64,000 nucleotides of DNA, from the NCBI GenBank assembly GCA_964347265.1, contig CAYFXV010000003.1, positions 3,001 to 67,000 of the forward strand, read 5' to 3'. Shown here one piece after another: positions 31,945 to 59,930 of the stretch; positions within the stretch are counted from its first letter, which is position 1; each line of letters opens with the position of its first letter. Position numbers and translations under genes: made by a program. The notes beneath the pieces were generated by a model that was not told the DNA's origin, did no database searches, and was given only the letters and a program-made list of their open reading frames with translations. The stretch comes from an uncultured archaeon. Lineage in GTDB: Archaea; Aenigmatarchaeota; Aenigmatarchaeia; Aenigmatarchaeales; Aenigmatarchaeaceae.

Positions 31945-32004
31945 AATTTAAGAAAGAACACTAAAAAATTTAAACCCTTTGATTAAGAAATTAAAGCTTA
32001 AATT

Positions 32005-34001: not shown

Positions 34002-34020
34002 TGCCGGTGGTAAAAAAAGT

Positions 34021-35332: not shown

Positions 35333-35401
35333 AATAAAGTCTAATGGAGCTTAGATTGAAAATAAATTTGTTACCACCAAAAGTGGTAAAAGAAATTTAA
35401 A

Positions 35402-36205: not shown

Positions 36206-36241
36206 AATATTACTTTATTAGTATTTTAAAAAATAAGTTTC

Positions 36242-36427: not shown

Positions 36428-36476
36428 AATATCACTTATTACTATTTAGTTATAAATATTTTTAAAGCTATCCTTT

Positions 36477-37565: not shown

Positions 37566-37637
37566 TTAAAAATTAACTTATTTTAAGTAGATAACTGATG
37601 TTTATAAATGTTATATGTCTATTCGACAATAAGTTAA

Positions 37638-38405: not shown

Positions 38406-38407
38406 AT

Positions 38408-39235
38408 TTATCCTCTCCTTACTAAAGGTGTTACAACATTAAGATTGGTTATTGGAAGTGGTACTTCTCTTGCATCAGTATTTAAGAATTTTTTAAATTC
38501 TTTTGCTAAATCTTTTCTATCAATGTATTTTACATTTCCTTCTACGCGTCCAATTTGATATGCAGTTGCAGGTCCTCTCAAAAGATATGAAGCTGTTGGA
38601 TATCTTAAGAAAGGTAAATCAGTTAGTTTCTTATCTCCAGCCCCACAAGAAAGTTTATCAAATTTATTAAAAATAAATTCTCTAGTTTCATTAGCCCTTT
38701 CTTCAGCATCCCATAAAGGTTCTATTATATCACCTGTAAAATAACCTCTTCCATCAGTTCCTAATACAGTTCCATGAACTTCAATTTCTACATTAGGTAT
38801 ATGCTGAGCTATTTTATTTTTAACATATAACTTTGCAGCACTTTCTTCACCGCCTGTAAAAATTTTAAATTTTGCTGCTGGAACTTTTTGAAGAATTTTC
38901 AAAAAATTTTTTGTTGGTTTATCTAATTCTGTTTCTTTCACCACTTTAAGCGTAGCACTATGCCAATCAAAAGTTCTTACAGCAAAATCACATAAATTTT
39001 GAGTTATTTCTTCTATTGTATTTCTATATCCAATTCCAGTTTTTTCTAAACTGTTCAAAACTTCTCTTAAGAGACATTTATATCTACCATATTTTCCACT
39101 TCTATCTAGGTAATCTATATTGGCTACAGAAAGATTCTTATATTTAGGATTAACTAAAGTACCATCAAAATCAAAGACCCCATGCAGTTTATTTCTATTA
39201 TAATTTAGGATATCAATAACTTTAAATTCCCACAT
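38408..39235 (-). CDS. HAD-superfamily hydrolase
   Basis: Motif I FDFDGTL and motif IV-like GAGDKKLTD. Confidence 0.55.
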   Translation of the reverse strand: MWEFKVIDILNYNRNKLHGVFDFDGTLVNPKYKNLSVANIDYLDRSGKYGRYKCLLREVLNSLEKTGIGYRNTIEEITQNLCDFAVRTFDWHSATLKVVKETELDKPTKNFLKILQKVPAAKFKIFTGGEESAAKLYVKNKIAQHIPNVEIEVHGTVLGTDGRGYFTGDIIEPLWDAEERANETREFIFNKFDKLSCGAGDKKLTDLPFLRYPTASYLLRGPATAYQIGRVEGNVKYIDRKDLAKEFKKFLNTDAREVPLPITNLNVVTPLVRRG

Positions 39236-39306
39236 ATTTTACCACTTACAAATAGTTATAAACTAATCTTTAAAAAGCTTATTTCTTTTTAAAAATAACA
39301 TATTTT

Positions 39307-40413
39307 ATGAAATTCAGAAAAATCCAAGAAGGAAAGATAAATTTTTATGTTCCTAAAGGAAGAATCTACGATGCTCCTGTATTTTTCAATCCAGAAGCGG
39401 AGTTAACCAGGGACATCTCAATTTCAGCAATCCAGGTCTTTCAAAAACAATTCAAAAACAAAATAACAATCTGTGATGCATTAGCAGGAACAGGAATAAG
39501 AGGCTTAAGATATGCAAAAGAAATAACAGGAATTAAAAAAGTCATTTTAAATGATAAAAACCCGAAAGCAGTAAAACTAATAAAGAAAAACATCAGAGAA
39601 AACAAGCTTTCTAGAAAATGCATATCAAGTAAAGAAGATGCAAACATATTATTAAGAAAGAATGTTTTTGTTGTAATTGATTTAGATCCTTTTGGTTCTC
39701 CTAATATTTTCATGGATTCTGCTGCAAGATCTATTTATCATAAAGGATTTTTATGCGTAACAGCAACTGATCAATCAGCTTTAGCAGGAACTTATCCAGA
39801 ATCTTGTTTAAGAAAATATGGAATAAAATCAATTAAAACTGAATTTTATAATGAATTGGGAGTTAGAATCTTGATTTCTTTTATAATATTAAATCTAGCA
39901 AGATATGACAGAGCTTTCATACCTTTGTTATCTTTTTCTACAAAGCATTATTACAGAGTTTTTGGAAGAGTTGAACATGCAGGAAAAATAGCAAATCTGT
40001 TAAAAGATTTTGGTTATGTTAATTATTGTCCCAAATGTTTGGAAAGAAAGATTGGAAATATTGAAAAAATTGATAGTAAAAAGCATGTTTTTGAAAATTG
40101 TGGTTTGATTTATTTAGGAAAAATATTAAATAAAAAATTCTGCAAAAAAGTCTTAGCTGATATAAGAAAAAGGGATTTTAGATTGAAAAAAGACGAGGAA
40201 AAATTATTAAAAATGTTAATAGAAGAAGCTGAAATGCCTGCTTTTTATTATGATTTGCATTCTTTGGCTAAAAAATTAAAAACAAATATTCCTAAAACGG
40301 AAGTTTTAATTAAAAAACTTAAAAAAAGGGGTTTTAAAGCATCAAGAACTCATTTTTGCTCAACTGCAGTAAAAACTGATGCTGGTTATAAGAAGTTTTG
40401 TAAATTAACATAG
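39307..40413 (+). CDS. trm1: tRNA (guanine26-N2)-dimethyltransferase Trm1
   Basis: INFYVPKG..., FFNPEAELTRDISI, DALAGTGIRGLRYAKE and a C-terminal Zn-like CPKC...C module. Confidence 0.85.
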   Translation: MKFRKIQEGKINFYVPKGRIYDAPVFFNPEAELTRDISISAIQVFQKQFKNKITICDALAGTGIRGLRYAKEITGIKKVILNDKNPKAVKLIKKNIRENKLSRKCISSKEDANILLRKNVFVVIDLDPFGSPNIFMDSAARSIYHKGFLCVTATDQSALAGTYPESCLRKYGIKSIKTEFYNELGVRILISFIILNLARYDRAFIPLLSFSTKHYYRVFGRVEHAGKIANLLKDFGYVNYCPKCLERKIGNIEKIDSKKHVFENCGLIYLGKILNKKFCKKVLADIRKRDFRLKKDEEKLLKMLIEEAEMPAFYYDLHSLAKKLKTNIPKTEVLIKKLKKRGFKASRTHFCSTAVKTDAGYKKFCKLT

Positions 40414-46901: not shown

Positions 46902-47408
46902 ATGGAACGCAGTAAAAAAATTATTTTTGTATCTCATTGTCTTTTAAACCAAAATGCAAGAGCTCTAGGAAGGGAGAAATTTGCTGGATCATTTAAAGAC
47001 TTGTTAGAGTTATTTGCAGCATCTGGCGTAGGAATAGTTCAATTACCCTGTCCTCAATTAGATTTTAATGGTGGATTAAATAGAAGAGTAAGTTCAAAAT
47101 CTTTTTATGAGTCAAATGGATACAGAAAACAATGTCATAAATTATCTATTAATCTTATAAATCAGATAGAAAATTATCTTAGAAATAATTATCTTGTAGT
47201 TGCTATTTTAGGTGTAGAGCTCTCTGCCACTTGTGCTGTTCACCAGGTAAAAAGCGGTAGAAAGAATGTTCCTGGAAAAGGAATCTTGATAGAAGAAATA
47301 GAAATGGAAATGCAAAAAAAGAATTTTCAAGTCCCGATAATAGGGATTAATATTGATAATATTTACAGTTCTATAGAAAAGGTTCAATCCTTATTAGATT
47401 TTTCTTAA
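46902..47408 (+). CDS. DUF523 family protein (TudS-like putative [4Fe-4S] desulfidase fold), paralog 1
   Basis: IIFVSHCLLNQNAR...GVGIVQLPCPQ...C matches the DUF523 pattern. 45% identical to ORF 59457..59930. Confidence 0.55.
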   Translation: MERSKKIIFVSHCLLNQNARALGREKFAGSFKDLLELFAASGVGIVQLPCPQLDFNGGLNRRVSSKSFYESNGYRKQCHKLSINLINQIENYLRNNYLVVAILGVELSATCAVHQVKSGRKNVPGKGILIEEIEMEMQKKNFQVPIIGINIDNIYSSIEKVQSLLDFS

Positions 47409-49140: not shown

Positions 49141-49548
49141 ATGAAAGGACAGACTGGTTTTGAGTACTTAATGATTTTTTCAATAGTTATAGTCTTAGTA
49201 TTAATTTTAGTAACTTTTGCTGGACAACTTACTGAAAGAAATAAAGAAGAAATAAGAATATCAAATGCTATGGCAGTAGTAAATGAAATAGTAGACACGG
49301 CAAACATAGTGAACACACAGGGAAAACCCACGTCTCTGACATTAACATCTGTTTATATTCCCGAAGGAGTAGAATCAATAGATATTACTGGTAAAACTAT
49401 TTTAATGAAAATTAGAATAGGTGGTGGCATAAGTGATATTTTTGCAACATCAAAGGCAAATTTACAAGGTTCTATATCAAGCACTCAAGGAATAAAGAGG
49501 ATAAAAATAAAAGCAGAGGATAATTATGTTAACATCACAGAAGTCTGA
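49141..49548 (+). CDS. Type IV pilin (class III signal peptide MKG|QTGFEYLMIF)
   Basis: Short MKG leader, Q+1/E+5 and a hydrophobic helix. Paralog of 57872..58345 (same first 14 nt). Confidence 0.65.
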   Translation: MKGQTGFEYLMIFSIVIVLVLILVTFAGQLTERNKEEIRISNAMAVVNEIVDTANIVNTQGKPTSLTLTSVYIPEGVESIDITGKTILMKIRIGGGISDIFATSKANLQGSISSTQGIKRIKIKAEDNYVNITEV

Positions 49549-49936
49549 AGTTTCAATAGAATTTATTAGTTTAGTTGGTTTTATATTAATTATTTTTATT
49601 GTTATTTTAATTACTGTTGGTCTTAAAAACGATGAAATAGCTGAATCAACTGTTTTTTCAGATGCACAAAAAATTGCTAATTTAATAGCAAATGAAATTA
49701 ATTTTGCAGCTAGTATAGAAGGCTATTACAGAGAGTTTACACTACCTTCAAAACTTATAGACAATATAGAATATAATGTTTCTATTAATACAAATTTGAG
49801 GTTTGTTGAAGTTAAATGGAATGGTAAAAATGCTGTTTCTCGCATAATTACAGAAAATATTAATGGAGAAGTAAAACCTGGATTGAATAGAATTAGAATT
49901 AAAAATGATGAGGGGTTGGTCTTAATTGAAAGCTGA
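49526..49936 (+). CDS. Pilin-like protein (divergent class III signal)
   Basis: MLTSQKSEVSIEFISLVGFILIIF N-terminus. Overlaps its neighbours. Confidence 0.4.
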   Translation: MLTSQKSEVSIEFISLVGFILIIFIVILITVGLKNDEIAESTVFSDAQKIANLIANEINFAASIEGYYREFTLPSKLIDNIEYNVSINTNLRFVEVKWNGKNAVSRIITENINGEVKPGLNRIRIKNDEGLVLIES

Positions 49937-50414
49937 ATTATTCTCCTCGGATTTTGTTATGGGATTATTCATATTTTTAATAGGAATAGTTATATTTGAG
50001 GTATTTTATAGTAACCTTTACGCAGAAATAAACGATTATGGGATTCGTGATGACATACAAGCAAAACTTAATAGCATAGCAGATTTTTTGGCAACAAGTA
50101 CTGGTTATCCAGAATACTGGGACAATAATACTGTAAAAGTTATAGGACTTTTTAATTCTGGTTTAATAAACTTAACTAAATTTAATGAACTTCAAAAAAT
50201 AGAATACCACACTGTAAAAAAAATGATGGGTGCTGGAAGTTATGAAATTTATATTGAAGTTCAAAATGAGACGGGAGACCTTATAAATGATTATAAATAT
50301 GGTACCAAAGAAGGTGAAAATGCTAATCAAGTTTTTTATGTAAAAAGATTAGGTTTGATCGATTGGAATGGCAATGTAACAAAGGCTATTTTAAATGTTG
50401 GTGTTTGGTTATGA
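49926..50414 (+). CDS. Pilin-like / FlaF-FlaG-like N-terminally anchored protein
   Basis: MKAELFSSDFVMGLFIFLIGIVIF N-terminal helix. Length 162 aa. Confidence 0.4.
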   Translation: MKAELFSSDFVMGLFIFLIGIVIFEVFYSNLYAEINDYGIRDDIQAKLNSIADFLATSTGYPEYWDNNTVKVIGLFNSGLINLTKFNELQKIEYHTVKKMMGAGSYEIYIEVQNETGDLINDYKYGTKEGENANQVFYVKRLGLIDWNGNVTKAILNVGVWL

Positions 50415-52294
50415 GAGGTATTATTTTTACTTTAGATGCTTTGATAGCCCTTGGCATAATAATAGGACTAATAACTGGTTTAATTTTCTTCAGAACAAAG
50501 ATAGCATCACCTTATCTAGCTTCCCAACAACTACATTTCATATCAGAGGATGTATTAACAGTTTTTTCTAACTCTAAACTCAGAGATGTTGTTGATAATC
50601 AAACTTTATTGGATCAATATATATCAGATGGTATTTTAAATCAAAGTGATTTAGATGAAAAAACAATAGATGTTATAGGTGCTCTATGGTCTGCTGGAAA
50701 TGTATCTGAAGCAGCAAATCTAACAAAAGATATTTTAGATGATTTTATTCCAAGTAATATTGGTTATGAATTTCTGATAGACAATGATCCCATTTACAAT
50801 TCTTCAGACACAACAAGACCAAGTTATGGAGATTCAACAATAGAAATTTCTTCTGGTAGAATTGTTTCTGGTTATGAAAAAGGTAAAGCTACAAGAGGAT
50901 ATGTTGCAAGAGCTATAGCAAGAAGAATAAATAAAAATAATACGCTTGTTGTAATGGGCGATCTCATAACTACTAGTGTAGCAAGTGCCCAAAATAAAAT
51001 AAATATAAGTTATATTGCAGACCTGCCAGATGATGCTACTATTCTAGATACTTATTGGTTTATAGAAGCTACTTGGGGAATTAAAAATAAATTTAGTTGT
51101 TGGATGAATGGTGAAAAAATAGATGGATGTGAAGGAGCAATAGGTAATACAAAATTAGAATCTGGAGATTATATAGACCTTCTACAGCCTGGACACAATA
51201 TAGGTAAAATAGTTTATAGAAAATTCTCGGATGAACCAACTGCTGGTGATGATGGAGCAACACATTTAGTTATAACGTATAACACCTCTCAATTATCAAC
51301 TCTCCAAGAATTTGGAAAACAATATTTTCAAACTACGATTTCAGAAGCACCTATAGAATATAAAAAACCAATATTCACAATTAATGATATTTATAACATG
51401 AGTATTCATATTAATCTTACCAATACAACAGAAGTTAAAAATGTGACGTTAAAGTTCATGTGGAATGGACAAGGTTATAATATAAGTATAAAAAATGTTA
51501 CAAACGGCACAGTAGATTGGAATGATACAGAAATAAAAAGTGTTTTGAACTCTAATGGAATTTCATATGATCTCTTGACTGGCAGATATTTCTGGTTTAT
51601 TGTTGAAATTGATCCTTATAGGGGAGATGAAACAATGAGTTATGAAAGAAAAATAGTTGGTGAAGATTCTTATGTAAGTCTCAATTATTCTAAAATTCTC
51701 GACATAGGAGCAATATATAATTATATTGATATGACAAGAACACTTACAGATTATATTGCTGAAGATGTTGATCCTAACTTTGGGATGTCGGGTTTTTATA
51801 GGTATATCAGATGGGACTTTAATTTAACAAGTAAAATTCCTTTAATGGCTAGATGGCAATATCCATGGGGCCATTGGGCTGGGTGGGATCCATTACAACT
51901 TGTAAGAGCAAATAACATTACGATTTATAATCACGACCCAACTAATGCATCGAGTGATCCTTTTATGAAGGCATTTGTTAGATTTGGTTATAATGCTAAT
52001 CCATATGGTGTTCTTATTAGTGATGATAATAAATTTGAACTTAATTTCAGTGATGGTTATTCCATTAATCCTGCAGATTCTTTTGGAGATACTACATTTT
52101 TAGTACCAGCATCTGTAGGTTATGGCGATTTATTTGAAAATGAAACTGATGCAGTTGATGATGCAGTCCAACGGTTGCAGGACGTATTAGGTGAAGACAT
52201 TTCAGTTATGGAATTGATCGTAGATGCTGTTAGAATTGGTGGTGTTCCTTATATGTGGGGACCAGTTAGTGCAAGAGTTAAAACGTGGGTGTAG
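50411..52294 (+). CDS. Large pilin-like protein (628 aa), candidate minor pilin / tip adhesin
   Basis: ATG at 50411 overlaps the upstream stop (ATGA). The N-terminus MRG|IIFTLDALIALGIIIGLI resembles a prepilin F-T-L-(I/D) motif. The remainder is an N-x-T/S-rich extracellular domain. Confidence 0.55.
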   Translation: MRGIIFTLDALIALGIIIGLITGLIFFRTKIASPYLASQQLHFISEDVLTVFSNSKLRDVVDNQTLLDQYISDGILNQSDLDEKTIDVIGALWSAGNVSEAANLTKDILDDFIPSNIGYEFLIDNDPIYNSSDTTRPSYGDSTIEISSGRIVSGYEKGKATRGYVARAIARRINKNNTLVVMGDLITTSVASAQNKINISYIADLPDDATILDTYWFIEATWGIKNKFSCWMNGEKIDGCEGAIGNTKLESGDYIDLLQPGHNIGKIVYRKFSDEPTAGDDGATHLVITYNTSQLSTLQEFGKQYFQTTISEAPIEYKKPIFTINDIYNMSIHINLTNTTEVKNVTLKFMWNGQGYNISIKNVTNGTVDWNDTEIKSVLNSNGISYDLLTGRYFWFIVEIDPYRGDETMSYERKIVGEDSYVSLNYSKILDIGAIYNYIDMTRTLTDYIAEDVDPNFGMSGFYRYIRWDFNLTSKIPLMARWQYPWGHWAGWDPLQLVRANNITIYNHDPTNASSDPFMKAFVRFGYNANPYGVLISDDNKFELNFSDGYSINPADSFGDTTFLVPASVGYGDLFENETDAVDDAVQRLQDVLGEDISVMELIVDAVRIGGVPYMWGPVSARVKTWV

Positions 52295-52296
52295 TG

Positions 52297-53526
52297 ATGA
52301 GAGGTTTGCTTTATAGTATAATGGCGGCTTTGATTATTATTCCATTATTCAGTATCATATTTTTCTATTCTCAAATAGGACAAGAAAACATTGACATTAG
52401 TATAAGAGCTAATGAACTTAAATATTTTGTAGACAGTATTGAAGCTGATTTAAATAGGTTCATGGAAATAACAGGAAAAAGAGCTTTAATATCAGCTGTA
52501 TCTAATATTACGGTTAGTGGAATTCCTCTTGATGACGCACAAATAAGACTGAGGGAGTTAATAGAAAACGGAACCTTAAAGGGCGCACCTTCTCCACTTG
52601 TTGATACAGATAATTTAAATACATGGGAAGGAAAAATTGGAACATTGGCAAGTAATTCTGGTTTTTATCTGACTTTTGAAGTTTTAGAAATGAATGTAAC
52701 ACAAAATGATAGTTTTAATATTTTATTTGAAATTAAGGGTTTTGTAAATATTTCTGACCTGAATGCAAAAATGGGTGTTATAAGAAATATAACCGCAACA
52801 TCTATTGTTTCTATAGATAATATAGAAGATCCTCTATTCCCATTAAATACATTAGGCAGAGTATTTAGAGTAATAAGGTATTATAATTTTACTAATTATG
52901 CAAAAGATATAGTCCAAGGAACCAATGCTTCCCTTACTTCTGTTAGTGGAAATGCAACAATAATTAATTCATCCGATCTTACTGTTTCAGACGCTGATAA
53001 AATTCTTGTAACAGATATTATTGCGGACAGTAAAATAGGTATTATTATTGGATTTAAAGGAGTTGTCGCAGAAAGTGATTATGTTCCTGCTGGATTTTCA
53101 AAACCATATATTGTCGGAGCACCAAACGCAATGTCTTTAATTCAAGAAAACGAAAGAATATATTTAGATCCTAGACTATACACAAAAAAAGTTTGGGATT
53201 TGCAAAACTTAACTTCAGCTATACGAAATGGTTATTACAAATCTTCTGATAAAGGACCAAGTTTTTTAGACAGATTGGAAGGTAGATTAAGTCTTTCAGA
53301 CAAATATAATAATTATGGTTTAGAATCATTTGTTGACTTACCAGAAATATCTCAAGCAAATTTAGAAGTAGATTATACATTAAGTTGTGTTGATTATGAA
53401 TATTGGAAAAATACTACAGGTAGATCTATAAGAAATGGAGCTCCAGGCGATCCTTATGATCCGGTATTTAATTGGTTTAAAATAGATCTATTTCATCAAA
53501 ATATTTATGGTGTAAATGAACTATAA
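52297..53526 (+). CDS. Large pilin-like protein (409 aa)
   Basis: ATG lies 3 nt after the upstream stop. N-terminus MRG|LLYSIMAALIIIPLF. Confidence 0.5.
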   Translation: MRGLLYSIMAALIIIPLFSIIFFYSQIGQENIDISIRANELKYFVDSIEADLNRFMEITGKRALISAVSNITVSGIPLDDAQIRLRELIENGTLKGAPSPLVDTDNLNTWEGKIGTLASNSGFYLTFEVLEMNVTQNDSFNILFEIKGFVNISDLNAKMGVIRNITATSIVSIDNIEDPLFPLNTLGRVFRVIRYYNFTNYAKDIVQGTNASLTSVSGNATIINSSDLTVSDADKILVTDIIADSKIGIIIGFKGVVAESDYVPAGFSKPYIVGAPNAMSLIQENERIYLDPRLYTKKVWDLQNLTSAIRNGYYKSSDKGPSFLDRLEGRLSLSDKYNNYGLESFVDLPEISQANLEVDYTLSCVDYEYWKNTTGRSIRNGAPGDPYDPVFNWFKIDLFHQNIYGVNEL

Positions 53527-53543
53527 TTTGAATAGGGAATTAA

Positions 53544-54383
53544 ATGGTTAATATTAAAGAAATGATTATTGAAACCCCAATAGATAAACTTATAAGATTA
53601 GTTAAAGAGAGGGAAAAAATAACTTTTAGTGAAGCAGCTGAAGCTCTCGGTGTTAATCAAAAACAAATAGAACAATGGGTAAGAGTTCTAGAAGAACGTG
53701 ATTTCGTAGAATTAAGATATCCAGCAATTGGAGAACCGATTATAGTTCTCAAAAAAATTAAAGAAAAGAAAATAGCTAAGAAAATTGAGAAGGAGAGGGA
53801 AAAAATTGAGAAAAAGACAGAAAAATTTGAAGAAAAAATAATAGAAACTGAAAAGAAAATAGAGGTATCGCACAAGAGTGTCTCCAAATTAGAAAAGGAG
53901 TTGCATAAAAAATTAGAGGGTGTAGAAAAAAATCTTAAATTTTTAGAATCTTTAGAGGGCAAAAAACAGGAAGTGATAAAAGGAACAAAAGAAATAGAAG
54001 ATGTAACAAAAAATGTAACAAAAAGCTTTGAAGAATTAAAATCAAGCGTAGAAAAGATGGACCAACAAATAAATGAAAAAATTAAATTTATAGAAGCTCA
54101 TGAAGACCAAATAAAAAATTTGGAAGAGTTCAGAAATGAAATAAAAGAGGATATAGAAAAGCTGGATGCAGAAATTAAACTAACAAAACTTATTTTAAAA
54201 GGTAAAAAAATGCCTTCTGTAAATCCATTAAAAAGATTATTCGGAAAGCATGGTAAAAAAACTGAAAAAGTGAAAAACAAACATAAAAAACTGCACAAAA
54301 AAGTTTCCAATATGAAAGAAAAAGTAAAAAAGAAGAAAAATAAAGCCAAGAAAAGGTCAAGTATTTATAAGGATTTTTGGTGA
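53544..54383 (+). CDS. wHTH plus long coiled-coil protein with a basic tail, embedded in the pilus locus
   Basis: N-terminal LIRLVKEREKITFSEAAEALGVNQKQIEQWVRVLEERDFVELRYP, then about 150 aa of KE-rich heptads. Confidence 0.5.
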   Translation: MVNIKEMIIETPIDKLIRLVKEREKITFSEAAEALGVNQKQIEQWVRVLEERDFVELRYPAIGEPIIVLKKIKEKKIAKKIEKEREKIEKKTEKFEEKIIETEKKIEVSHKSVSKLEKELHKKLEGVEKNLKFLESLEGKKQEVIKGTKEIEDVTKNVTKSFEELKSSVEKMDQQINEKIKFIEAHEDQIKNLEEFRNEIKEDIEKLDAEIKLTKLILKGKKMPSVNPLKRLFGKHGKKTEKVKNKHKKLHKKVSNMKEKVKKKKNKAKKRSSIYKDFW

Positions 54384-54396
54384 ATTTGGTGAATAA

Positions 54397-55947
54397 ATGG
54401 TAAAAGATATAATCGATAATTATCAGATAGAATCAGACAAAGTACCTGCAAAGATTAGTATAATAAAAAGACCAGAAGAATATACCCCTGTTTATGAAGT
54501 CAAGTTCCCAACAATAGAGCCTGCAACAAGAGCAATATTAGATTCTATAAAAGAAAAACTAATAGAAATTGTAAAAATAGAAATAAGCGAGATTTTAGAT
54601 CCTAAAGCCATGGAAAGCATTAAAAAGAGGTTCTTAGAGAGTGCTATTGAAACCATTTCTAAAGAAATGCCTAAAGTTTCAGACGAAGAGAAAAACATAT
54701 TGGCTGGATATCTTGTTCATGAAATGCTTGGTTTAGGAAGGCTTGAGGTTGTATTAAATGATGACAACTTAGAAGAACTAGTTATAAACAATTCTACTGA
54801 ATGCGCTTGGGTATTTCATAAAAAATTTGGATGGTTAAAAACAAACATAATGATTCCATCAGAGGAACAAATATACAATTATGCAAGTCTAATTGGAAGA
54901 AAAATTGGTAGAGAGATAACTAATTTAAGTCCATTAATGGATGCTCATTTAATAACTGGAGATAGAGTTAATGCTACTCTGTTTCCGATATCAACAAAAG
55001 GAAATACCATAACAATAAGAAAATTTAGAAGAGAGCCTTGGACAATGATAGATTTCATAGACCCTATGTATAAAACACTTACAATGGAAATAGCTGCCCT
55101 GTTATGGTTATGCATGCAGTATGAATTAAACATATTAGTTGCTGGTGGAACTGCTTCAGGAAAAACTTCAGTATTAAATGCTTTAATGCCATTCATACCA
55201 CCAAACCACAGAATAATCTCAATAGAAGATACAAGAGAATTAAGACTTCCAGATTTCTTGCACTGGATTCCTTTAACAACAAGAGAACCGAATCCAGAAG
55301 GAAGAGGGGAAATAAAAATGTTAGATCTATTAGTGAATTCATTAAGAATGAGGCCTGATAGAGTTGTTGTAGGAGAGATAAGAAGACAAGCAGAAGCTGA
55401 AGTTTTATTTGAGGCAATGCATACTGGCCATAGTGTTTATGCAACTTTACATGCTGATACAGCTGAGCAAGTAATAAGAAGACTAACTAATCCACCTATT
55501 GATCTACCAGAAACTTTGTTAGAAGCTTTGCATTTAGTTATAGTTCAATTTAGACATAGAAGAAGAGGAATAAGAAGAACATTACAAGTAGCAGAATTAC
55601 TTCCAGGAGGTGCAAGAGGTGAAGCTAAGGCAAGATTGGAAACATTATACAGGTGGAAACCTCAAACTGATAAAATAGTAAAAGTTAGGGACAGTATGAG
55701 GTTGATAGATGAAATAAGAATGCACACAGGAATGACAGACGAAGAAATGGAAAAAGATTTGGGGGAAAAGGAAACAGTCCTACAGTGGATGTTAGAAAAT
55801 AAAATAAATACTGTAAATACTGTAGGAAAAGTTATTGCTGATTATTATCATGATAAAGAAAAAGTATTAAAAATAATTAATATAAAAGGTAAACCCGAGG
55901 AAATTCTTGGACCAAGCTTTATGAAAGAACTTAAAAAGGCTGTTTAA
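54397..55947 (+). CDS. Type IV pilus / secretion assembly ATPase (FlaI/TadA/GspE family)
   Basis: Walker A LVAGGTASGKTS, Asp box, Walker B RPDRVVVGEIR and His box ATLHAD. Confidence 0.9.
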   Translation: MVKDIIDNYQIESDKVPAKISIIKRPEEYTPVYEVKFPTIEPATRAILDSIKEKLIEIVKIEISEILDPKAMESIKKRFLESAIETISKEMPKVSDEEKNILAGYLVHEMLGLGRLEVVLNDDNLEELVINNSTECAWVFHKKFGWLKTNIMIPSEEQIYNYASLIGRKIGREITNLSPLMDAHLITGDRVNATLFPISTKGNTITIRKFRREPWTMIDFIDPMYKTLTMEIAALLWLCMQYELNILVAGGTASGKTSVLNALMPFIPPNHRIISIEDTRELRLPDFLHWIPLTTREPNPEGRGEIKMLDLLVNSLRMRPDRVVVGEIRRQAEAEVLFEAMHTGHSVYATLHADTAEQVIRRLTNPPIDLPETLLEALHLVIVQFRHRRRGIRRTLQVAELLPGGARGEAKARLETLYRWKPQTDKIVKVRDSMRLIDEIRMHTGMTDEEMEKDLGEKETVLQWMLENKINTVNTVGKVIADYYHDKEKVLKIINIKGKPEEILGPSFMKELKKAV

Positions 55948-55948
55948 A

Positions 55949-56824
55949 ATGATAATTCCTTTTGTTCCATTTCCACCTAAAAAAATGGCAAAAGAAGCAG
56001 TAACACATTTCTCAAAATTCGGAGATATAATATGTAAATCTTTTCCATCTTTAAAACTAACTCTTTATCAAGCTAAAATTGGGCTAAGACCAAGAGAATA
56101 TGCATCCATGATTGTATTAACAAGTATTTTTTATTTTATATTATTGACACCCTTAATTTTTTGGATAGGTTTAGTTGCTGGCAAAATAGATTTTTTTCTT
56201 CCTTTTGTAGTCGGTGGTGTTTTTTCTCTTTTCATTTTCTTTTATTTAATACAATATCCAAGACTTGTTGCTAGCAGAAGAATGAGAATTTTAGAATCAG
56301 ATTTATTAAATTCTTTACAACACATGTTAATAGAAATTAAATCGGGTGTTCCACTCTTTAATTCAATGATAAGCATAAGTATTGGTTATGGAGAAATAAG
56401 TGAAGAATTTAAAAAAGTAGTAAGAGAGATAAATGCTGGGAAACCTGAAATAAAAGCTTTAGAAGAGGCATCAAGAAGAAACCCTTCCCTATACTTTAGA
56501 AGAACTTTATGGCAATTAACAAACTCGATTAAAGCTGGAAGTGATGTTGGTGACGCTCTTGAAGCTATTGTTCACAATTTAACACAAGAACAGATAATAG
56601 CAATAAGAAAGTATGGCCGAGAATTAAGTCCCTACACATTAATTTACATGTTAATTGCAATAATTATGCCAACATTAGGAATAACATTTTTAATTATATT
56701 ATCTTCTTTTGCAGGTATTGACATTCCGAAACTAATATTTCCTTTAATAGTAATTGCTTTAGCTGTATTCCAATACTTTTACATGGGAATAATAAAAACT
56801 AAAAGGCCTTTAATGGTGAGGTAA
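55949..56824 (+). CDS. T2SSF-domain platform protein (TadB-like half of a split FlaJ)
   Basis: A single T2SSF-like domain (LLNSLQHMLIEIKSGVPLFNSM...) plus TM helices. Confidence 0.65.
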   Translation: MIIPFVPFPPKKMAKEAVTHFSKFGDIICKSFPSLKLTLYQAKIGLRPREYASMIVLTSIFYFILLTPLIFWIGLVAGKIDFFLPFVVGGVFSLFIFFYLIQYPRLVASRRMRILESDLLNSLQHMLIEIKSGVPLFNSMISISIGYGEISEEFKKVVREINAGKPEIKALEEASRRNPSLYFRRTLWQLTNSIKAGSDVGDALEAIVHNLTQEQIIAIRKYGRELSPYTLIYMLIAIIMPTLGITFLIILSSFAGIDIPKLIFPLIVIALAVFQYFYMGIIKTKRPLMVR

Positions 56825-57817
56825 TTGAAAGATATTTACTATTTAACTCCGAAAAGATATAGAGATTTTTTCAAGAAACAAATAAGGTATGCTGGAGTAA
56901 AAGAGTCTACTACAAACAGAATAGTTGGAATCTCATATTTCTTATCAATATTACTAGCTATTAATTTTTCTTTTATTTTCTTACTATTTGGTTTCGGCCC
57001 TCTAGGATTTTTAATGGGTTTGGGAATTGGTTTTGGTGTTATAATTTGCACTTATTTAATTTTCATGTTTGTTGCAGATTCAAGGGCCAATCAAATTGAA
57101 AAGGTTTTGCCTGATGCTTTGTTATTAATGTCTGCAAACATTAGAGCTGGAATGACTGTTGACAGGGCAATATGGCTCTCTGCAAGACCAGAATTTGGGG
57201 TTCTTGAAGAAGAAATTAAAAAGGTTGGTGCAAGAACAATGGGAGGAAAACCATTGAAAATAGCACTGACTGAAATGACAAAAAACATTAAATCAAAAAT
57301 ACTAAATAGGACAGTAAAATTATTATTAGAAGGAATTAAATCTGGGGGCGAGATAGCTCATTTATTAGAAGAAACTGCAAATAATATAAGAATCAATCAA
57401 ACTCTTAAAAAAGAGATAAAGTCATCAGTAATGACTTACTCTATATTTATACTTTTTGCTGCTGTAATTGCAGCTCCGTTTTTATTTTCAATAAGTCTTT
57501 TCTTTGTTGATACAATGACAAGTCTTTGGGGTTCAGCAAGTTTTGGTGCAGGAGTAACAGGAACAACAATGGGCGTGGGAGGTCCATTCCAGAAAGCTAG
57601 AGGACCTCAAATAAATGTAGCTGATTTATTATGGTTTTCAATATCAACATTAGCTGTAACAGCATTCTTTGGTTCTCTATCAATAGGATTAATTCAAAGT
57701 GGTAAAGAAAAGAATGGATTAAAATTTATTCCAGTTTTACTCATAGGATCAATATCAGTATTATTGATATCTCAAATTGTTGTAAAGATGTTATTTGGAA
57801 GCTTTTTTGCTCTATAG
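56825..57817 (+). CDS. T2SSF-domain platform protein (TadC-like half)
   Basis: T2SSF-like domain (LLLMSANIRAGMTVDRAIWLS...) plus TM helices. The start abuts the previous stop. Confidence 0.65.
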   Translation: MKDIYYLTPKRYRDFFKKQIRYAGVKESTTNRIVGISYFLSILLAINFSFIFLLFGFGPLGFLMGLGIGFGVIICTYLIFMFVADSRANQIEKVLPDALLLMSANIRAGMTVDRAIWLSARPEFGVLEEEIKKVGARTMGGKPLKIALTEMTKNIKSKILNRTVKLLLEGIKSGGEIAHLLEETANNIRINQTLKKEIKSSVMTYSIFILFAAVIAAPFLFSISLFFVDTMTSLWGSASFGAGVTGTTMGVGGPFQKARGPQINVADLLWFSISTLAVTAFFGSLSIGLIQSGKEKNGLKFIPVLLIGSISVLLISQIVVKMLFGSFFAL

Positions 57818-57842
57818 TAATCTTTAAGTATCAAGTTAACAA

Positions 57843-57866
57843 AATAAAATATAAAATAGGAGGTAT
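57843..57866 (+). promoter_or_regulatory. TATA-like box plus GGAGGT Shine-Dalgarno upstream of the terminal pilin gene
   Basis: aaaatataaaataggaggtattaaaa immediately 5' of the ATG at 57872. Confidence 0.35.
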
Positions 57867-57871
57867 TAAAA

Positions 57872-58345
57872 ATGAAAGGACAGACAGCAGTTGAGTACCT
57901 TATGACTTATGGATGGGCAATTTTGATAATTTTAATAGTAGCTGGAGTTTTAGCATACTACGGTATATTTGCACCAGGATCATTTGTGGGACCAAGTAAA
58001 AAGGGATTCGCAACAGTAGATATTATATCACCTTGGGACTTAGATTCATCGGATGTGCTAAGATTAACATTTGAAAATAGAGTTGGTGAAGCAATAAATA
58101 TAACTAGTGTTTCTGCTGATGAAGGCACCACAGCACCAACTACGCCTACAGCTTGTGGTGGTTTGCCAGCTGGTGGTATACAAATAGCTGCAGGTGCTCG
58201 TTCAACTGTGACTTCATTCACATGTGGAGGCGCAAATGCAGGATCTACAGGACAACCGTATCAATTATACGTTATTGTAACTTATGACGCGGGAGCCATG
58301 ACAGATTTGAAAAGTACAGGTACTCTGAGTGGATCAGTAAGCTAA
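57872..58345 (+). CDS. Type IV pilin, major-pilin candidate (class III signal MKG|QTAVEYLMTY)
   Basis: MKG leader, Q+1, E+5, a hydrophobic helix and a Gly/Thr/Ala-rich globular part (157 aa). Confidence 0.7.
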   Translation: MKGQTAVEYLMTYGWAILIILIVAGVLAYYGIFAPGSFVGPSKKGFATVDIISPWDLDSSDVLRLTFENRVGEAINITSVSADEGTTAPTTPTACGGLPAGGIQIAAGARSTVTSFTCGGANAGSTGQPYQLYVIVTYDAGAMTDLKSTGTLSGSVS

Positions 58346-58386
58346 TAGTTTTCAATTATTTTAAATTTATTTTTTTATTGTTTTTT
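58346..58386. terminator. Bidirectional oligo-T termination zone between the convergent pilin gene and the mini-gene operon
   Basis: Several T5-T7 runs on both strands. Confidence 0.35.
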
Positions 58387-58647
58387 CTATTTCTTTTTAT
58401 GAATTCTTTTTTTCCATTTTTCTAATTTTTTGAAATAGTCTTCAAATAGATAATACCACATACCTTTTGGCCAATTATCGCTTTTATATTCTCTTTCTAT
58501 TTCTTTATCTGAATTATAAGCATGTTTTGCTTTTCCCAATTTCTTTCTGTTCTTATATCCATCAACATTAACGTCAAAGTCCTTTAATCTCACATCTCTC
58601 TTTTCCTTATCTATAACAATTGTTGAACTGATTTTTGATTGATACAT
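58387..58647 (-). CDS. Mini-gene E (86 aa from ATG 58647; the ORF track starts at 58701), Lys-rich divergent member
   Basis: The gene D stop TAA is followed by a TAATATG junction. The C-terminus is basic (KKLEKWKKRIHKKK). Confidence 0.4.
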   Translation of the reverse strand: MYQSKISSTIVIDKEKRDVRLKDFDVNVDGYKNRKKLGKAKHAYNSDKEIEREYKSDNWPKGMWYYLFEDYFKKLEKWKKRIHKKK

Positions 58648-58648
58648 A

Positions 58649-58837
58649 TTATCTCCTTCTCTGTAAGTCATAAGTATAGAAATTGGCCTTATCAAGCACA
58701 TCAGGCAGTCTATGCGATAAATCTCTTGCTATTCCTAAATCATTTGACTTAGTAGAACCTCTACCATGTATAGCTGAGAAATATTTGTTATTAGTGCACA
58801 CAGAAGTGACGCTCATTTTACCATAATATTCGGGCAT
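58649..58837 (-). CDS. Mini-gene D (62 aa from ATG 58837): MPEYYGKMSV...GRGSTKSNDLGIARDL
   Basis: About 30% identical to C. Uses the TAATG overlap with C. The ORF track begins at GTG 58846. Confidence 0.5.
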   Translation of the reverse strand: MPEYYGKMSVTSVCTNNKYFSAIHGRGSTKSNDLGIARDLSHRLPDVLDKANFYTYDLQRRR

Positions 58838-59034
58838 TATTTCCACCCCATGGACCTTTTATGAGCCTCATATGCTATTTGATTTGCTCTACTCACAGAA
58901 TCAGCCAAACCCTCTGAAATTGTTATTGCTATATCTCTATCATTTGACCTGGCAGAACCCAGACCTTCTAATTTTGTGTAATCTTTTCTTGTTGTTATTG
59001 TACTTTTATTATGAAGTTTTCCATAATACGACAT
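58837..59034 (-). CDS. Mini-gene C (65 aa): MSYYGK...GLGSARSNDRDIAITISEGLADSVSRANQI
   Basis: TAATG stop/start overlaps on both sides. NDRDIAITISEGLADSVSRAN resembles the DUF1508/YegP core (NGEvIAsSEGYaSkasAenGI). Confidence 0.5.
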   Translation of the reverse strand: MSYYGKLHNKSTITTRKDYTKLEGLGSARSNDRDIAITISEGLADSVSRANQIAYEAHKRSMGWK

Positions 59035-59195
59035 TACATCACCTCGCTTTGCACATAAGAAGCTGTATATTTTACATGATCTTTGTCTTTTCCCACAACT
59101 TTTAGACTTCTTTCAAAAGTTGTAGAATTTTTATTTCCACGTAAACTTCTATAGAATTCACTTTTTACATAATACGGAGATCTTTTATTTACCAT
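59034..59195 (-). CDS. Mini-gene B (53 aa from ATG 59195; the ORF track extends it to 59270)
   Basis: MVNKRSPYYVKSEF... The ATG lies 4 nt after the gene A stop. Its stop overlaps the gene C start (TAATG). Confidence 0.45.
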   Translation of the reverse strand: MVNKRSPYYVKSEFYRSLRGNKNSTTFERSLKVVGKDKDHVKYTASYVQSEVM

Positions 59196-59199
59196 AAAA

Positions 59200-59445
59200 T
59201 CACAGAGGACTGAAATATCCTTGGTCTCTTCCATATTTTTTCTTAATTTGTCTGTCAAAGTCTTCTTCAAGAGAAGCAGTTACACTACAATAGTCTTTTG
59301 AAGCCTTTGTTTCTTTTATACCAAATGAATTCATAGCACCTATCAATCCTCTATTTCTATGAACTATAGAATGGTCAACCTGAGACCCACCATAATCTGT
59401 TTCAACTGTTGTTTTACCTCTTTCTGATCTAACTCTCATAGTCAT
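59200..59445 (-). CDS. Mini-gene A (81 aa) of the five-gene paralogous array, dodecin/DUF1508-like
   Basis: GGAGGTG SD 6 nt upstream. Contains DYGG...GLIGAMNSFGI, related to the YYGK...G.GS..SND..IA repeat. Confidence 0.5.
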   Translation of the reverse strand: MTMRVRSERGKTTVETDYGGSQVDHSIVHRNRGLIGAMNSFGIKETKASKDYCSVTASLEEDFDRQIKKKYGRDQGYFSPL

Positions 59446-59456
59446 TTTAACACCTC

Positions 59457-59930
59457 CTAAGAATTTTTTAAAAGAAGATCAAGCTTTTCTAAAGTTGAAA
59501 AAACGTTGTTTAAATTGGTTGAAATTATTGGAACTTGGAAATTTCTTTTTTGCATTTCGTTTTCAATTCCTTTTATTAAGATTCCTCTTCCAGGAATGTT
59601 CTTCCTACCATTGTTAATTCTATAAACACCACATATTGGAGAAAATTCTACTCCAAGAATTCCTAGAACTTTAAAATTCGCATCTAAATATTTCTTAATT
59701 GTATTTACAATAAAAGAAGAAGTTTTTTTACAATAATTCTTACAAATTTTAGCATTATTTTCATTTCTTATAAACCTTCCATTACATTCTATTTTTGGAC
59801 AGGGTAATTGAACTATTCCTACGCCAGATTCAGTAAACAACCCTACTAATTCTTTTATTTTAGAGAATTTTTCTTTTCTTATACTCTGATTTAATATACA
59901 ATGTGAGACAAAAATTATTTTTTCACTCAT
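59457..59930 (-). CDS. DUF523 family protein, paralog 2, first gene of the mini-gene operon
   Basis: IIFVSHCILNQSIR...GVGIVQLPCPK...C. 11-nt spacing to mini-gene A. Confidence 0.55.
   Translation of the reverse strand: MSEKIIFVSHCILNQSIRKEKFSKIKELVGLFTESGVGIVQLPCPKIECNGRFIRNENNAKICKNYCKKTSSFIVNTIKKYLDANFKVLGILGVEFSPICGVYRINNGRKNIPGRGILIKGIENEMQKRNFQVPIISTNLNNVFSTLEKLDLLLKNS

Follow-up and report, generated by a model that had tools for sequence, protein, structure and literature searches.

The window, the whole 64,000-nucleotide stretch of DNA that was analysed, is matched in sequence by the Candidatus Aenigmarchaeota MAG GCA_011772535.1. All ten ORFs of the locus were present in the ORF list of the window, on the + strand between positions 49141 and 58345. 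The ten genes are co-directional. Six of their products bear class III (prepilin) signals; the others are a wHTH/coiled-coil protein, a VirB11/PilB-family ATPase and a pair of platform proteins with a single T2SSF domain each. They are designated g1 to g10 and are followed by a T-rich run:

49141..49548, + strand: g1, a 135-aa prepilin, MKG then QTGFEYL (Gln+1, Glu+5; DUF361/Class_IIIsignal type), from ORF and motif
49526..49936, + strand: g2, a 136-aa pilin-like protein, MLTSQKS then EVSIEF, from the N-terminal motif and hydrophobic segment
49926..50414, + strand: g3, a 162-aa pilin-like protein with a TTG start, MKA then ELFSSDF, from ORF and N-terminal motif
50411..52294, + strand: g4, a 627-aa large pilin-like protein, MRG then IIFTLDAL, from N-terminal motif and predicted fold
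52297..53526, + strand: g5, a 409-aa pilin-like protein, MRG then LLYSIMA, from N-terminal motif and predicted fold
53544..54383, + strand: g6, a 279-aa cytoplasmic protein with a wHTH (residues ~8–70), a long coiled coil and a polybasic C-terminal tail
54397..55947, + strand: g7, a 516-aa VirB11/PilB-family pilus assembly ATPase, non-archaellar, Pfam T2SSE
55949..56824, + strand: g8, a 291-aa platform protein with one T2SSF domain (2.2e-15), the N-half/TadC equivalent
56825..57817, + strand: g9, a 330-aa platform protein with one T2SSF domain (2.7e-13), the C-half/TadB equivalent
57872..58345, + strand: g10, a 157-aa prepilin, MKG then QTAVEYLMTYGWAILI, from ORF and motif
58370..58386, no strand: T-rich run TTTTTTTATTGTTTTTT, read from the sequence, between g10 and the convergent downstream minus-strand small ORFs

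At the N-termini of g1, g2, g3, g4, g5 and g10, [KR][GAS] was followed by a hydrophobic stretch of ~20–25 aa, and these prepilin-like motifs were retained in orthologues from several DPANN phyla. A sequence-only reading of this DNA had proposed that g1 and g10 are Gln+1 pilins (MKG, cut, Q..EY); both motifs were present, and M1, Q+1 and E+5 were invariant in the alignment (26/26 members of the g1/g10 family). Of the archaeal pilin models, PF04021 matched 10 of the 26 family members (best 8.4e-6); g1 itself stayed below cut-off (Class_IIIsignal, E=0.012; DUF7289, E=0.006) and the window's g10 had no Pfam match. More generally, g2, g4 and g10 had no significant Pfam or NCBIfam match, and the matches of g1, g3 and g5 were below cut-off. 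The description of g2 and g3 as small pilin-like proteins held up, and both are predicted from their sequences to be minor pilins: g2, which has no Pfam match, was weakly paralogous to g1 (phmmer 1e-4) and its orthologues elsewhere in DPANN read KKGQ(V/I)..E(F/I), while g3 (weak DUF7287 match, E=0.062; 4 sequons, z=2.6) has orthologues that retain [KR][GA], the cut site and Q....D[LF]. The first gene of the operon, g1, whose position was conserved in Aenigmatarchaeota loci, is a candidate for the major or an abundant minor pilin. The best candidate for the major pilin is g10, on three grounds, namely its Shine-Dalgarno (SD) strength (a 54-nt upstream gap, then a strong GGAGGT 7 nt before the ATG), its copy number (tandem copies in L022) and its N-terminus, which was very conserved across DPANN. 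The T-rich run lies in the intergenic stretch directly 3' of g10 and, since oligo-T terminators are used in archaea, is probably the transcription stop of the operon.

The two large proteins, g4 and g5, had been described as prepilin-like helices fused to sequon-rich ectodomains, and both parts of that description were borne out, except that g4 is 627 rather than 628 aa long, starting at ATG 50411. Relative to an expectation from 2000 shuffles, g4 carried 22 N-X-S/T sequons vs 6.1 (z=7.1; 0/2000 shuffles equalled or exceeded this) and g5 carried 12 vs 4.4 (z=4.1; 0/2000 shuffles); the cytoplasmic and membrane parts were at expectation. AlphaFold models were confident for both: in g4, an N-terminal helix leads through a helical region to an alpha/beta domain and tandem β-sandwich domains, and in g5, a very long N-terminal helix is followed by a three-stranded sheet and a C-terminal swiveling β/β/α head. 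Matches of the large proteins included sugar-binding-like β-sandwiches, and some homologues contained VWA domains. On the strength of the sequon enrichment, the confident models, these matches and the VWA homologues, we take g4 and g5 to be extracellular. Together with the conserved cleavage motifs, the sequons, folds and VWA homologues make it plausible that they are glycosylated modular minor pilins or adhesins; g4 is predicted to be a glycosylated pilin, minor or tip-located, that works as an adhesin, and g5 a modular minor pilin, and either may serve as a tip adhesin. The Gln+1/Glu+5 signature was missing from both proteins, for which uncleaved, membrane-anchored surface proteins are an alternative to filament subunits.

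Neither a signal peptide nor a TM segment was predicted in g6, which has a net charge of +22. The proposed wHTH coiled-coil architecture was recovered: single-sequence matches of the wHTH were weak, and the family profile matched LrpA (1.6e-5) and IclR (8e-4), with Pfam HVO_A0114 found in 7/12 family members and TrmB in 6/12. Wherever a DPANN locus extended far enough 5' of the ATPase, a wHTH ORF occurred 1–2 ORFs before it, the exceptions being the Nanohalo-type L014/L015 and L024; loci of the Woese/Nano type have 2–4 TM segments ahead of the wHTH in place of the coiled coil. In DPANN pilus loci, the counterpart of g6 is the 'coiled-coil protein' (CCP; PMC11291902), and g6 may be either a regulator or a motor-associated partner.

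The ten-gene order, with ArgRS upstream, was kept in eight Aenigmatarchaeota-type loci (L002–L006, L009, L010 and L012, two pairs of which are the same contig region) at 74–90% ATPase identity; L007 and L008 were incomplete at their ends and L011 had no detectable g4/g5. The ATPase, g8 and g9 were kept in Nanohalarchaeota, Nanobdellati, Iainarchaeum, Woesearchaeota, Nanoarchaeota and Micrarchaeota loci, as well as in one MAG labelled Marsarchaeota and one Methanobacteriota MAG.

The earlier claim that this is an archaeal type IV pilus locus and not an archaellum was upheld, and the ATPase g7 matched Pfam T2SSE (E=4.8e-34) and, weakly, PilB3_C (4.6e-4). A motility operon, an archaellum whose gene set has degenerated, might be suspected, given that homologues are labelled 'FlaJ' in public annotations and that the FlaI model is the best NCBIfam match of g7; however, that score (298 bits; TadA family, 190 bits) is far under the equivalog cut-off of 550. 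The best PDB match, over the full length, was A. fulgidus GspE (AfGspE; 2OAP, 245 bits), followed by FlaI (197) and CpaF (169), and an NJ tree placed g7 in a group of DPANN sequences, outside the FlaI+AfGspE cluster rather than with archaellar FlaI. Because it is closer to AfGspE than to FlaI and scores below the FlaI equivalog cut-off, g7 is not an archaellar FlaI. In agreement with the sequence-only reading, FlaH, FlaF/G and FlaC/D/E were absent from the locus genes and from the other window ORFs (a subset) and contig genes scanned; neither these nor an archaellin domain occurred in the gene tables of related loci, and DPANN homologues were likewise judged non-archaellar by Hamm 2019 (PMC6642349). 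An archaellum is therefore extremely improbable. The platform proteins raise a comparable question, as g8 and g9 share one frame in the window with only a TAA between them and the TTG start of g9 directly after, so that a sequencing error, or a recent nonsense mutation that made a pseudogene, could have cut one gene in two, or stop-codon readthrough could join them. Against this, an SD-like GGTGAGG spans the g8 end and g8–g9 junction before the TTG, and independent assemblies gave the identical sequence. Across >120 clusters, and wherever a related locus covered both, the halves had conserved sizes: all of the 120 closest g8 clusters were 282–306 aa long, and nearly all of the best 150 representatives at 50% identity were single matches of 260–335 aa, only one being long enough for a fused form. 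The split was present in every fetched DPANN locus running past the ATPase, and both halves kept their size there and in two methanogen loci. In relatives, g9 lay 3' of g8 (a Methanosphaera MAG has its g9-like gene at another place in the locus, on the opposite strand) and the frame relation varied, with g9 in another frame, overlapping or spaced, in L002, L009, L011, L013, L014, L017–L022, L026 and L027. As reading frames differ among relatives, g8 and g9 are two genes and the split is genuine, due to neither frameshift nor readthrough; a single broken gene is hardly credible.

A separate matter is whether g4 and g5 are pilins at all, or co-transcribed surface proteins or adhesins of the type II (signal-anchor) class, held in the membrane by an uncleaved N-terminal helix. 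Their residues +1 to +6 (IIFTLD, LLYSIM) are unlike the Q....E motif of g1/g10 and neither had a pilin-family HMM match, but [KR]G directly before the hydrophobic helix was kept across phyla, and in the model of g5 the N-terminal helix spans 70 residues and packs against the sheet, as in pilins. The g2-g3-g4-g5 order was also fixed even in L019 and L020, where the cassette is separate from the motor genes; bacterial T4P/T2SS minor-pilin cassettes are similar, as are the large pilin-like proteins in Makarova's Clade 1/Clade 2 (PMC4858521). We therefore consider signal-anchor proteins unlikely and treat g4 and g5 as predicted minor pilins. For the machine as a whole, a short pseudopilus serving DNA uptake (competence-like) or secretion, rather than mainly an adhesive pilus, would use the ATPase, platform and pilins to push out and pull back a short fibre, importing host DNA or exporting proteins, with g6 handling DNA at the motor. 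The DNA-binding-type wHTH and polybasic tail of g6, tightly linked to the ATPase across DPANN, would suit such a device, nucleotide biosynthesis is missing in DPANN (PMC6642349), passages of PMC10133366 place type IV pilus genes among those needed for natural transformation of M. maripaludis, and passages of PMC11300603 and PMC12019362 describe a single Tad ATPase that can power extension and retraction. However, there were no ComEC or DprA-like competence genes in the locus or the scanned window ORFs, and the large glycosylated ectodomain proteins suit adhesion better. The wHTH proteins beside archaeal surface-filament operons, moreover, are usually regulators, such as ArnR, as Makarova's 2016 work is said to hold as well. 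An uptake or secretion device thus appears distinctly improbable.

We conclude that the locus is confirmed as a genuine ten-gene, non-archaellar archaeal type IV pilus operon, and that it is very probably the full structural and assembly operon of an adhesive type IV pilus of the archaeal 'two-TadC' (Epd-like/Tad-related) kind, in a conserved DPANN form. The six prepilin-like proteins would enter the membrane via their N-terminal hydrophobic helices and, we infer, be cleaved after [KR][G/A/S] by an A24 prepilin peptidase whose gene would lie elsewhere, presumably one of the EppA/PibD type; EppA of Methanococcus cleaves the kind of Gln+1/Glu+5 motif seen in g1/g10. No peptidase A24 was found among window ORFs with ≥4 predicted TM segments, consistent with its reported absence from the window, and no prepilin peptidase in the flanks of any fetched related locus. 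A hexamer of g7 would dock on the platform formed by g8 (N-half) and g9 (C-half), and ATP hydrolysis would push pilins from the membrane into a helical filament whose shaft may consist of g10, perhaps plus g1. The minor-pilin set g2–g5 would prime assembly and end at the tip, displaying the heavily N-glycosylated β-sandwiches of g4 and swiveling-domain modules of g5 for attachment to surfaces or host cells, while g6 would remain cytoplasmic and regulate the operon or couple to the motor.

The platform pair had been read as TadB plus TadC and its split as bacterial-like. In model comparisons, g8 aligned with UpsF positions 35–244, the N-terminal half of fused FlaJ/UpsF/PilC-type platforms, and g9 with the C-terminal half (UpsF 265–438, FlaJ 190–463); g8 has ~4 TM segments, and the two proteins are paralogous (1e-10). 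By Denise 2019 (PMC6668835), g8 is TadC, followed by g9 as TadB, and two single-domain platform genes are published for archaea and are the norm in this clade: EpdJ/EpdK are two pilC/tadC paralogues required for Methanococcus maripaludis Epd pili (PMC4371748), two tadC-like genes occur in Clade 1 and many Clade 2 euryarchaeal loci (Makarova 2016, PMC4858521), and each archaeal tadC-like protein has one T2SSF domain and originates from gene fission (Denise 2019). The split is therefore not new to this locus, being known from Epd and many euryarchaeal pili, and the locus belongs to a known kind, of which it is a well-conserved example. Bacterial Tad/Flp systems (TadA/CpaF, TadB, TadC, Flp, TadE/F/G) share the single ATPase, the platform of two single-T2SSF proteins, a G, cut, XXXXEY-like pilin motif, and small pseudopilins with a large pilin-like protein, including VWA-containing variants; unlike them, the locus lacks a secretin, TadD, RcpB/C and TadZ, its platform genes run N-half to C-half, and the CpaF score of g7 is lower than those of archaeal ATPases. 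The bacterial TadB/TadC pair probably derives from such archaeal genes (Makarova 2016; Denise 2019), and by Denise 2019 the descent of Tad runs from archaea to bacteria, so that it is Tad that resembles this system and not the reverse.

Epd pili of M. maripaludis (EpdL ATPase, EpdJ and EpdK platform, EpdA–E pilins, EppA; PMC4371748) and Makarova Clade 1 likewise combine one ATPase, two half-size platform genes, [KR][GA], cut, Q-type prepilins (KGQ in Epd) and several minor pilins with large adhesin-like proteins, two-TadC systems with at least 5 minor pilins being described in PMC4858521. They differ in that core ATPase identity to the two fetched methanogen loci was only ~40–44%, the pilins here are 135–157 aa vs ~70 aa for the major pilins of that clade, EppA and a FleN/MinD ATPase are absent from the locus, the large proteins have no DUF2341 match, and a wHTH/coiled-coil gene is not reported for Epd loci. 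Euryarchaeal Clade 2 pili (Haloferax PilB3/PilC3 and PilB4 loci; AfGspE) are linked to the locus by the AfGspE, PilB3_C, DUF7287 and DUF7289 matches, and many of their loci have two tadC genes and a 250–550 aa minor pilin, but all matches were under family cut-offs and core identity to AfGspE was only 38%. A further close precedent is that of Hamm 2024 (Nat Commun, PMC11291902), passages of which already report, for cluster 2 DPANN and Aenigmarchaeota among them, conserved loci that combine coiled-coil proteins with the type IV pilus genes CpaF and TadC; the taxon range is the same, the coiled-coil protein adjoins CpaF-type ATPase and TadC-type platform genes, and a host-interaction role is proposed. 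The g1–g5/g10 pilin cassette and the large-protein folds are unmentioned in its main-text passages, which draw a parallel between the coiled-coil proteins and sigma-1, a viral attachment protein, whereas g6 lacks both a signal peptide and a TM segment and begins with a conserved wHTH of the DNA-binding type; elsewhere in DPANN, TM segments precede the wHTH, which is predicted to face the cytoplasm. According to passages of PMC11291902 and PMC6642349, homologues are proteomically expressed in Ca. Nanohaloarchaeum antarcticus.

Type IV pili are leading candidates for making the physical contact with host cells on which DPANN archaea are believed to depend. Ten tightly packed + strand genes (g1–g10, window positions 49141–58345), with a divergent arginyl-tRNA synthetase gene 72 bp from g1 on one side and convergent small ORFs on the other, very probably form a DPANN type IV pilus operon, for which a mechanism is proposed below. 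GC content is ~30% across the window, with no compositional break at the pilus locus, and the window sequence is matched by a Candidatus Aenigmarchaeota (DPANN) MAG (GCA_011772535.1, contig WVZI01000079.1). Three generic features of archaeal type IV pili were present, namely a VirB11/PilB-family ATPase, an adjacent T2SSF platform and class III signal pilins, and HMM searches bore out the domains that had been called from the sequence-only reading (an ATPase, two single-T2SSF proteins and a winged helix-turn-helix [wHTH] coiled-coil protein):

53544–54383, + strand: g6, N-terminal wHTH, then a coiled coil, then a polybasic tail
54397–55947, + strand: g7, ATPase of the T2SSE family (E = 4.8e-34, HMM search)
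55949–56824, + strand: g8, platform protein with exactly one T2SSF domain (2.2e-15, HMM search)
56825–57817, + strand: g9, platform protein with exactly one T2SSF domain (2.7e-13, HMM search)

When all ten proteins were searched against Pfam and NCBIfam, g2, g4 and g10 had no significant match, and all matches to g1, g3 and g5 were sub-threshold. The locus is a clean example of the DPANN pilus operon, fully syntenic and with its pilin cassette defined.

As had been proposed from the sequence, the g7 locus is not an archaellum. On the NCBIfam FlaI equivalog (NF058587), g7 scored 298.5 bits against a cut-off of 550, and its best solved relative was the non-archaellar GspE of A. fulgidus (245 bits over the full length, cf. 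197 for FlaI and 169 for CpaF). FlaH, FlaF/FlaG, FlaC/D/E or FlaX and archaellins were absent from the locus, from the scanned window ORFs and from the gene tables of related loci fetched from other genomes (handles such as L002), and the sole FlaC_arch match (E = 0.42) fell within the coiled coil of g6. The ATPase phylogeny that had been suggested as a check was run as a small neighbour-joining tree (20 sequences, 307 core columns; EpdL, UpsE, AapE and haloarchaeal PilB references not included), and g7 did not fall inside FlaI. Rather, the DPANN ATPases, which were 62–88% identical to g7, formed their own group in this tree and lay outside the cluster of FlaI and AfGspE (with or without Thaumarchaeota) with 93–98% bootstrap; the tree was adequate for the FlaI question, but its deep nodes were weakly supported. 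Identity of g7 was 40–44% to two methanogen split-platform loci and 36–38% to FlaI, AfGspE and CpaF. Large extra N-terminal regions were observed on the pilus ATPases of L023, L025 and L026 (677–678 aa) and of L027 (ORF of 1129 aa), which belong to Micrarchaeota-type loci and a Methanobacteriota MAG.

The platform proteins g8 and g9 share a reading frame in the window and are separated by one TAA, with a TTG start immediately after it (56813–56830) and a GGTGAGG Shine-Dalgarno-like motif spanning the end of g8 ahead of that TTG. This in-frame, single-stop junction raises the possibility of a frameshift, a nonsense-broken gene or a readthrough product, the first of which had been named in the sequence-only reading as what would undo it. 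Comparative data ruled out all three, as the frame relation was not conserved and the sizes of the halves were. In the window, g8 covered positions 35–244 of the UpsF model, the N-terminal half of this fused platform, and g9 the C-terminal half (UpsF model, 265–438; FlaJ, 190–463). The 120 protein clusters nearest to g8, down to 61% identity, were all 282–306 aa long, and an exhaustive search with g8 across 1.84 billion cluster representatives (E ≤ 1e-30) gave 255 matches, of which the best 150 were nearly all single-domain proteins of 260–335 aa, only one of these 150 reaching the length of a fused form (706 aa). With the ATPase as query, GTDB species representatives yielded 26 loci. Wherever a DPANN locus included downstream sequence, a g8-like gene (274–297 aa) and then a g9-like gene (324–378 aa) came after the ATPase; these split-platform loci came from Aenigmatarchaeota, Nanohalarchaeota, Nanobdellati, Iainarchaeum, Woesearchaeota, Nanoarchaeota and Micrarchaeota, as well as from one MAG labelled Marsarchaeota. 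The arrangement was also split in a Methanobacteriota MAG (platform genes of 377 and 317 aa), and in a Methanosphaera MAG the g8-like gene adjoined the ATPase with the g9-like gene elsewhere within the locus. Junctions differed between loci (a 4-nt overlap, abutting genes or gaps of 1–10 nt), and the second platform gene lay in a different frame in many of them, including L002, L009, L011, L013, L014, L017–L022, L026 and L027. The conserved half sizes and varying frames indicate that the split is old, selected and translated as two separate proteins.

The premise that archaeal platforms are mostly fused was correct (Denise et al., PMC6668835); the description of the split as 'bacterial-like' was the wrong way round, since the trait is archaeal in origin and was inherited by bacteria (PMC6668835). 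Epd pili of M. maripaludis require the ATPase EpdL and two pilC paralogues, EpdJ and EpdK, a pair that Pohlschroder and Esquivel termed 'reminiscent of' tadB/tadC (PMC4371748), and two tadC-like genes also occur in many Clade 2 euryarchaea (Makarova 2016, PMC4858521). Two-gene platforms carry one T2SSF domain per gene, cf. the fused two-domain platform of most other archaeal type IV pili, with TadC corresponding to the N-terminal half and TadB to the C-terminal half, and the bacterial Tad system descended from such archaeal two-gene systems (Denise et al., PMC6668835). Nothing here overturns current understanding; the split platform had been established before in Epd-like pili of archaea and is regarded as the ancestral state of bacterial Tad. 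Insertion of a stop codon into a fused gene is the fission route proposed for TadB/TadC (Denise 2019, PMC6668835). The g8-TAA-TTG-g9 junction has the exact configuration of that postulated state and illustrates 'fission by a stop codon' at the sequence level, a likeness that is probably incidental because relatives show other frames and overlaps.

The locus was compared with the Epd-like/Tad-related subgroup of Denise 2019 (PMC6668835). Like that subgroup, the present locus has two tandem single-T2SSF platform genes and Gln+1 prepilins (EppA-type with the DUF361 motif; MKG↓Q..EY in g1 and g10, the arrow marking the end of the leader). It differs in the length of the major pilins (~60–80 aa in the subgroup, cf. 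candidate precursors of 135 and 157 aa here) and in the TadZ/FleN-like ATPase, which the subgroup has and which was not found in our locus or the scanned window ORFs (PMC6668835). No TadZ/FleN/MinD-like ATPase (arCOG00589) was seen in the gene tables of related loci either, and a gene for such a protein may lie in another part of the genome. Unlike the bacterial Tad pilus, the operon belongs to an archaeon, and neither the secretin RcpA nor the TadD/RcpB/RcpC/TadZ set of accessories was found in the locus or scanned window ORFs.

At the N-terminus of six proteins of the operon, a hydrophobic segment of ~20–25 residues comes after a short basic leader that ends in [KR][G/A/S]:

g1, Gln+1 pilin: MKG↓QTGFEYL
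g2, small pilin-like protein: MLTSQKS↓EVSIEF
g3, small pilin-like protein: MKA↓ELFSSDF
g4, large pilin-like protein: MRG↓IIFTLDAL
g5, large pilin-like protein: MRG↓LLYSIMA
g10, Gln+1 pilin: MKG↓QTAVEYL

In an alignment of 13 g1-like and 13 g10-like proteins from five DPANN groups, Met1, Gln+1 and Glu+5 were invariant in all 26 (motif [KR][GA]↓Q-x-[AGS]-x-E-[YF]-[LM]), and Pfam Class_IIIsignal (PF04021) was matched by 10 of them (best 8.4e-6). The aligned motif is this Pfam pattern and also the KGQ-type processing site given for EppA-dependent Epd pilins (PMC4371748), and orthologues of g2 and g3 from other phyla also begin [KR]GQ... (Q+1). The likeliest major pilin appears to be g10, because its N-terminus was the most conserved (EYLMTYGWAILI), a 54-nt spacer and a strong GGAGGT ribosome-binding site precede it, and it is present as tandem duplicates in a Woesearchaeota locus.

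The two large proteins had been described as prepilin-like helices joined to sequon-rich ectodomains, and this description held, except that g4 is 627 aa long, not 628 (starting at ATG 50411). The [KR]G↓hydrophobic motif was kept in orthologues (consensus KG↓IxFTLDA for g4 and MKG..YS for g5). N-glycosylation sequons were enriched in both (22 vs 6.1 expected in g4, z = 7.1; 12 vs 4.4 in g5, z = 4.1), an enrichment not shared by the operon's cytoplasmic and membrane proteins. Confident AlphaFold2 models, built on family alignments, were obtained for g4 and g5, and with them the locus offers structural models of two large, probably glycosylated surface modules. Homologues of g4 ranged from 580 to 1178 aa, with VWA domains in two. 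Such variation in length and exchange of modules typify adhesins. Even where the cassette was detached from the motor genes (L019 and L020), its order stayed g1-g2-g3-g4-g5(-g10). Together, these data fit glycosylated modular minor pilins that would prime and cap the filament; that g4 and g5 are signal-anchored surface proteins rather than pilins is in our view unlikely.

The g6 protein carries a net charge of +22, with neither a signal peptide nor a TM segment. Its conserved core is a wHTH of 65–70 residues, for which the family profile matched LrpA (1.6e-5) and IclR (8e-4) in the PDB, and 6–7 of 12 members matched the HVO_A0114 and TrmB-type Pfam models. A g6-domain HMM matched a gene 1–2 ORFs ahead of the ATPase in every DPANN locus for which upstream sequence was present, except L014, L015 and L024: EF-2, which is not a g6 homologue, occupies this position in L014 and L015 (Nanohalo-type), and no ORF at this position was matched in L024. 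The same HMM had no match in methanogen or thaumarchaeal loci. A coiled coil and a lysine-rich tail come after the wHTH in Aenigmat-, Micr- and some Nanobdellati loci. The position of the wHTH is C-terminal, after 2–4 TM segments, in loci of the Woese-, Nano- and related types, where basic flanking loops would put it on the cytoplasmic side (positive-inside rule). According to Hamm 2024, DPANN loci encode CpaF, TadC and coiled-coil proteins, the latter likened to the viral attachment protein sigma-1, and Aenigmarchaeota are assigned to cluster 2 DPANN (PMC11291902). As in that CCP-CpaF-TadC locus, g6, g7, g8 and g9 are adjacent here, and g6 fits the published description of those coiled-coil proteins in position and architecture (PMC11291902). 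The features of g6 suggest a clearer reading of the 'coiled-coil protein' as cytoplasmic and wHTH-bearing, which would make a regulator or motor-associated partner more likely than a surface attachment fibre.

The split platform, large pilin-like proteins and the presence of this locus type in Aenigmarchaeota are already known; what remains new is that one pilin is predicted to carry a swiveling domain, and that the 'coiled-coil protein' bears a wHTH and is tightly linked to the ATPase. A bolder reading makes g6 a dedicated cytoplasmic part of the pilus machine, neither an attachment protein nor an ordinary repressor, and g5 an undescribed class of modular pilin whose head would be a swiveling beta/beta/alpha, phosphohistidine-domain-like fold; we regard this combination as a long shot. 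A g6 of this kind could be a membrane-proximal scaffold, a mechanosensory regulator linking motor state to transcription, or a handler of pilus-imported DNA.

Returning to the type IV pilus operon as a whole, we infer pilin processing, subunit roles and a binding target beyond the gene content, motifs, conservation and folds that were observed. Prepilins would enter the membrane and be cleaved by a peptidase encoded in trans. A g7 hexamer docked on a g8/g9 hetero-platform would use ATP to drive the extrusion of pilins into a filament, its shaft built from g10 and/or g1; g2–g5 would prime assembly and display glycosylated binding modules, and g6 would work in the cytoplasm. No A24 prepilin peptidase (PibD/FlaK/EppA) was found among window ORFs with at least 4 predicted TM segments (an HGSNAT-type acyltransferase, Yip1, DUF7847 and the two platform proteins), as had been noted from the sequence, nor among multi-TM ORFs in the flanks of the fetched loci; the multi-TM ORFs of window and fetched loci together gave HGSNAT acyltransferase, Yip1, DUF7847, M50 peptidase and TctA. 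Overall, what had been observed from the sequence alone was accurate, its reading as a non-archaellar pilus locus was reasonable, and its use in attachment is possible, in agreement with proposals for DPANN (PMC6642349, PMC11291902).

Tail-to-tail with the pilus operon lie five small hydrophilic ORFs (58387–59445, − strand; 65–86 aa) without a significant Pfam match or signal peptide, the second and third of which are paralogues (E ~1e-11). They occur in the same order in the Aenigmatarchaeota-type loci L002, L005, L006, L009 and L011, and a radical-SAM/PqqD/hydrolase cluster replaces them at the corresponding position in L004. Paralogues resembling DUF523/2-thiouracil desulfurase were located at:

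46902–47408, + strand: below the Pfam cut-off (E = 0.023)
59457–59930, − strand: below the Pfam cut-off (E = 0.0029)
14398–15135, − strand: third copy (8.4e-15)

The first two flank the arginyl-tRNA synthetase gene and pilus region in inverted orientation. They were considered as mobile-element boundaries and rejected as such, since related loci have copies at corresponding positions (L002 has one of the two, L004 has both), which indicates conserved chromosomal synteny.

Two further genes may encode large surface proteins unconnected with the pilus operon:

7677–12119, + strand: 1480 aa; its sole match, to MG2 (macroglobulin-like), is weak
12044–13657, + strand: 537 aa; N-terminus resembling a signal peptide; no Pfam match, and no entry in the contig index, probably owing to a different called start

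The window also holds a complete-looking mevalonate-pathway/isoprenoid gene cluster (29311–40400, via the related locus L031), which is notable because lipid biosynthesis has been described as missing from many DPANN (cf. PMC6642349). It includes genes for HMG-CoA synthase, GHMP kinases, a decarboxylase, a polyprenyl synthase and a member of the amino-acid-kinase family, which could be an isopentenyl phosphate kinase.
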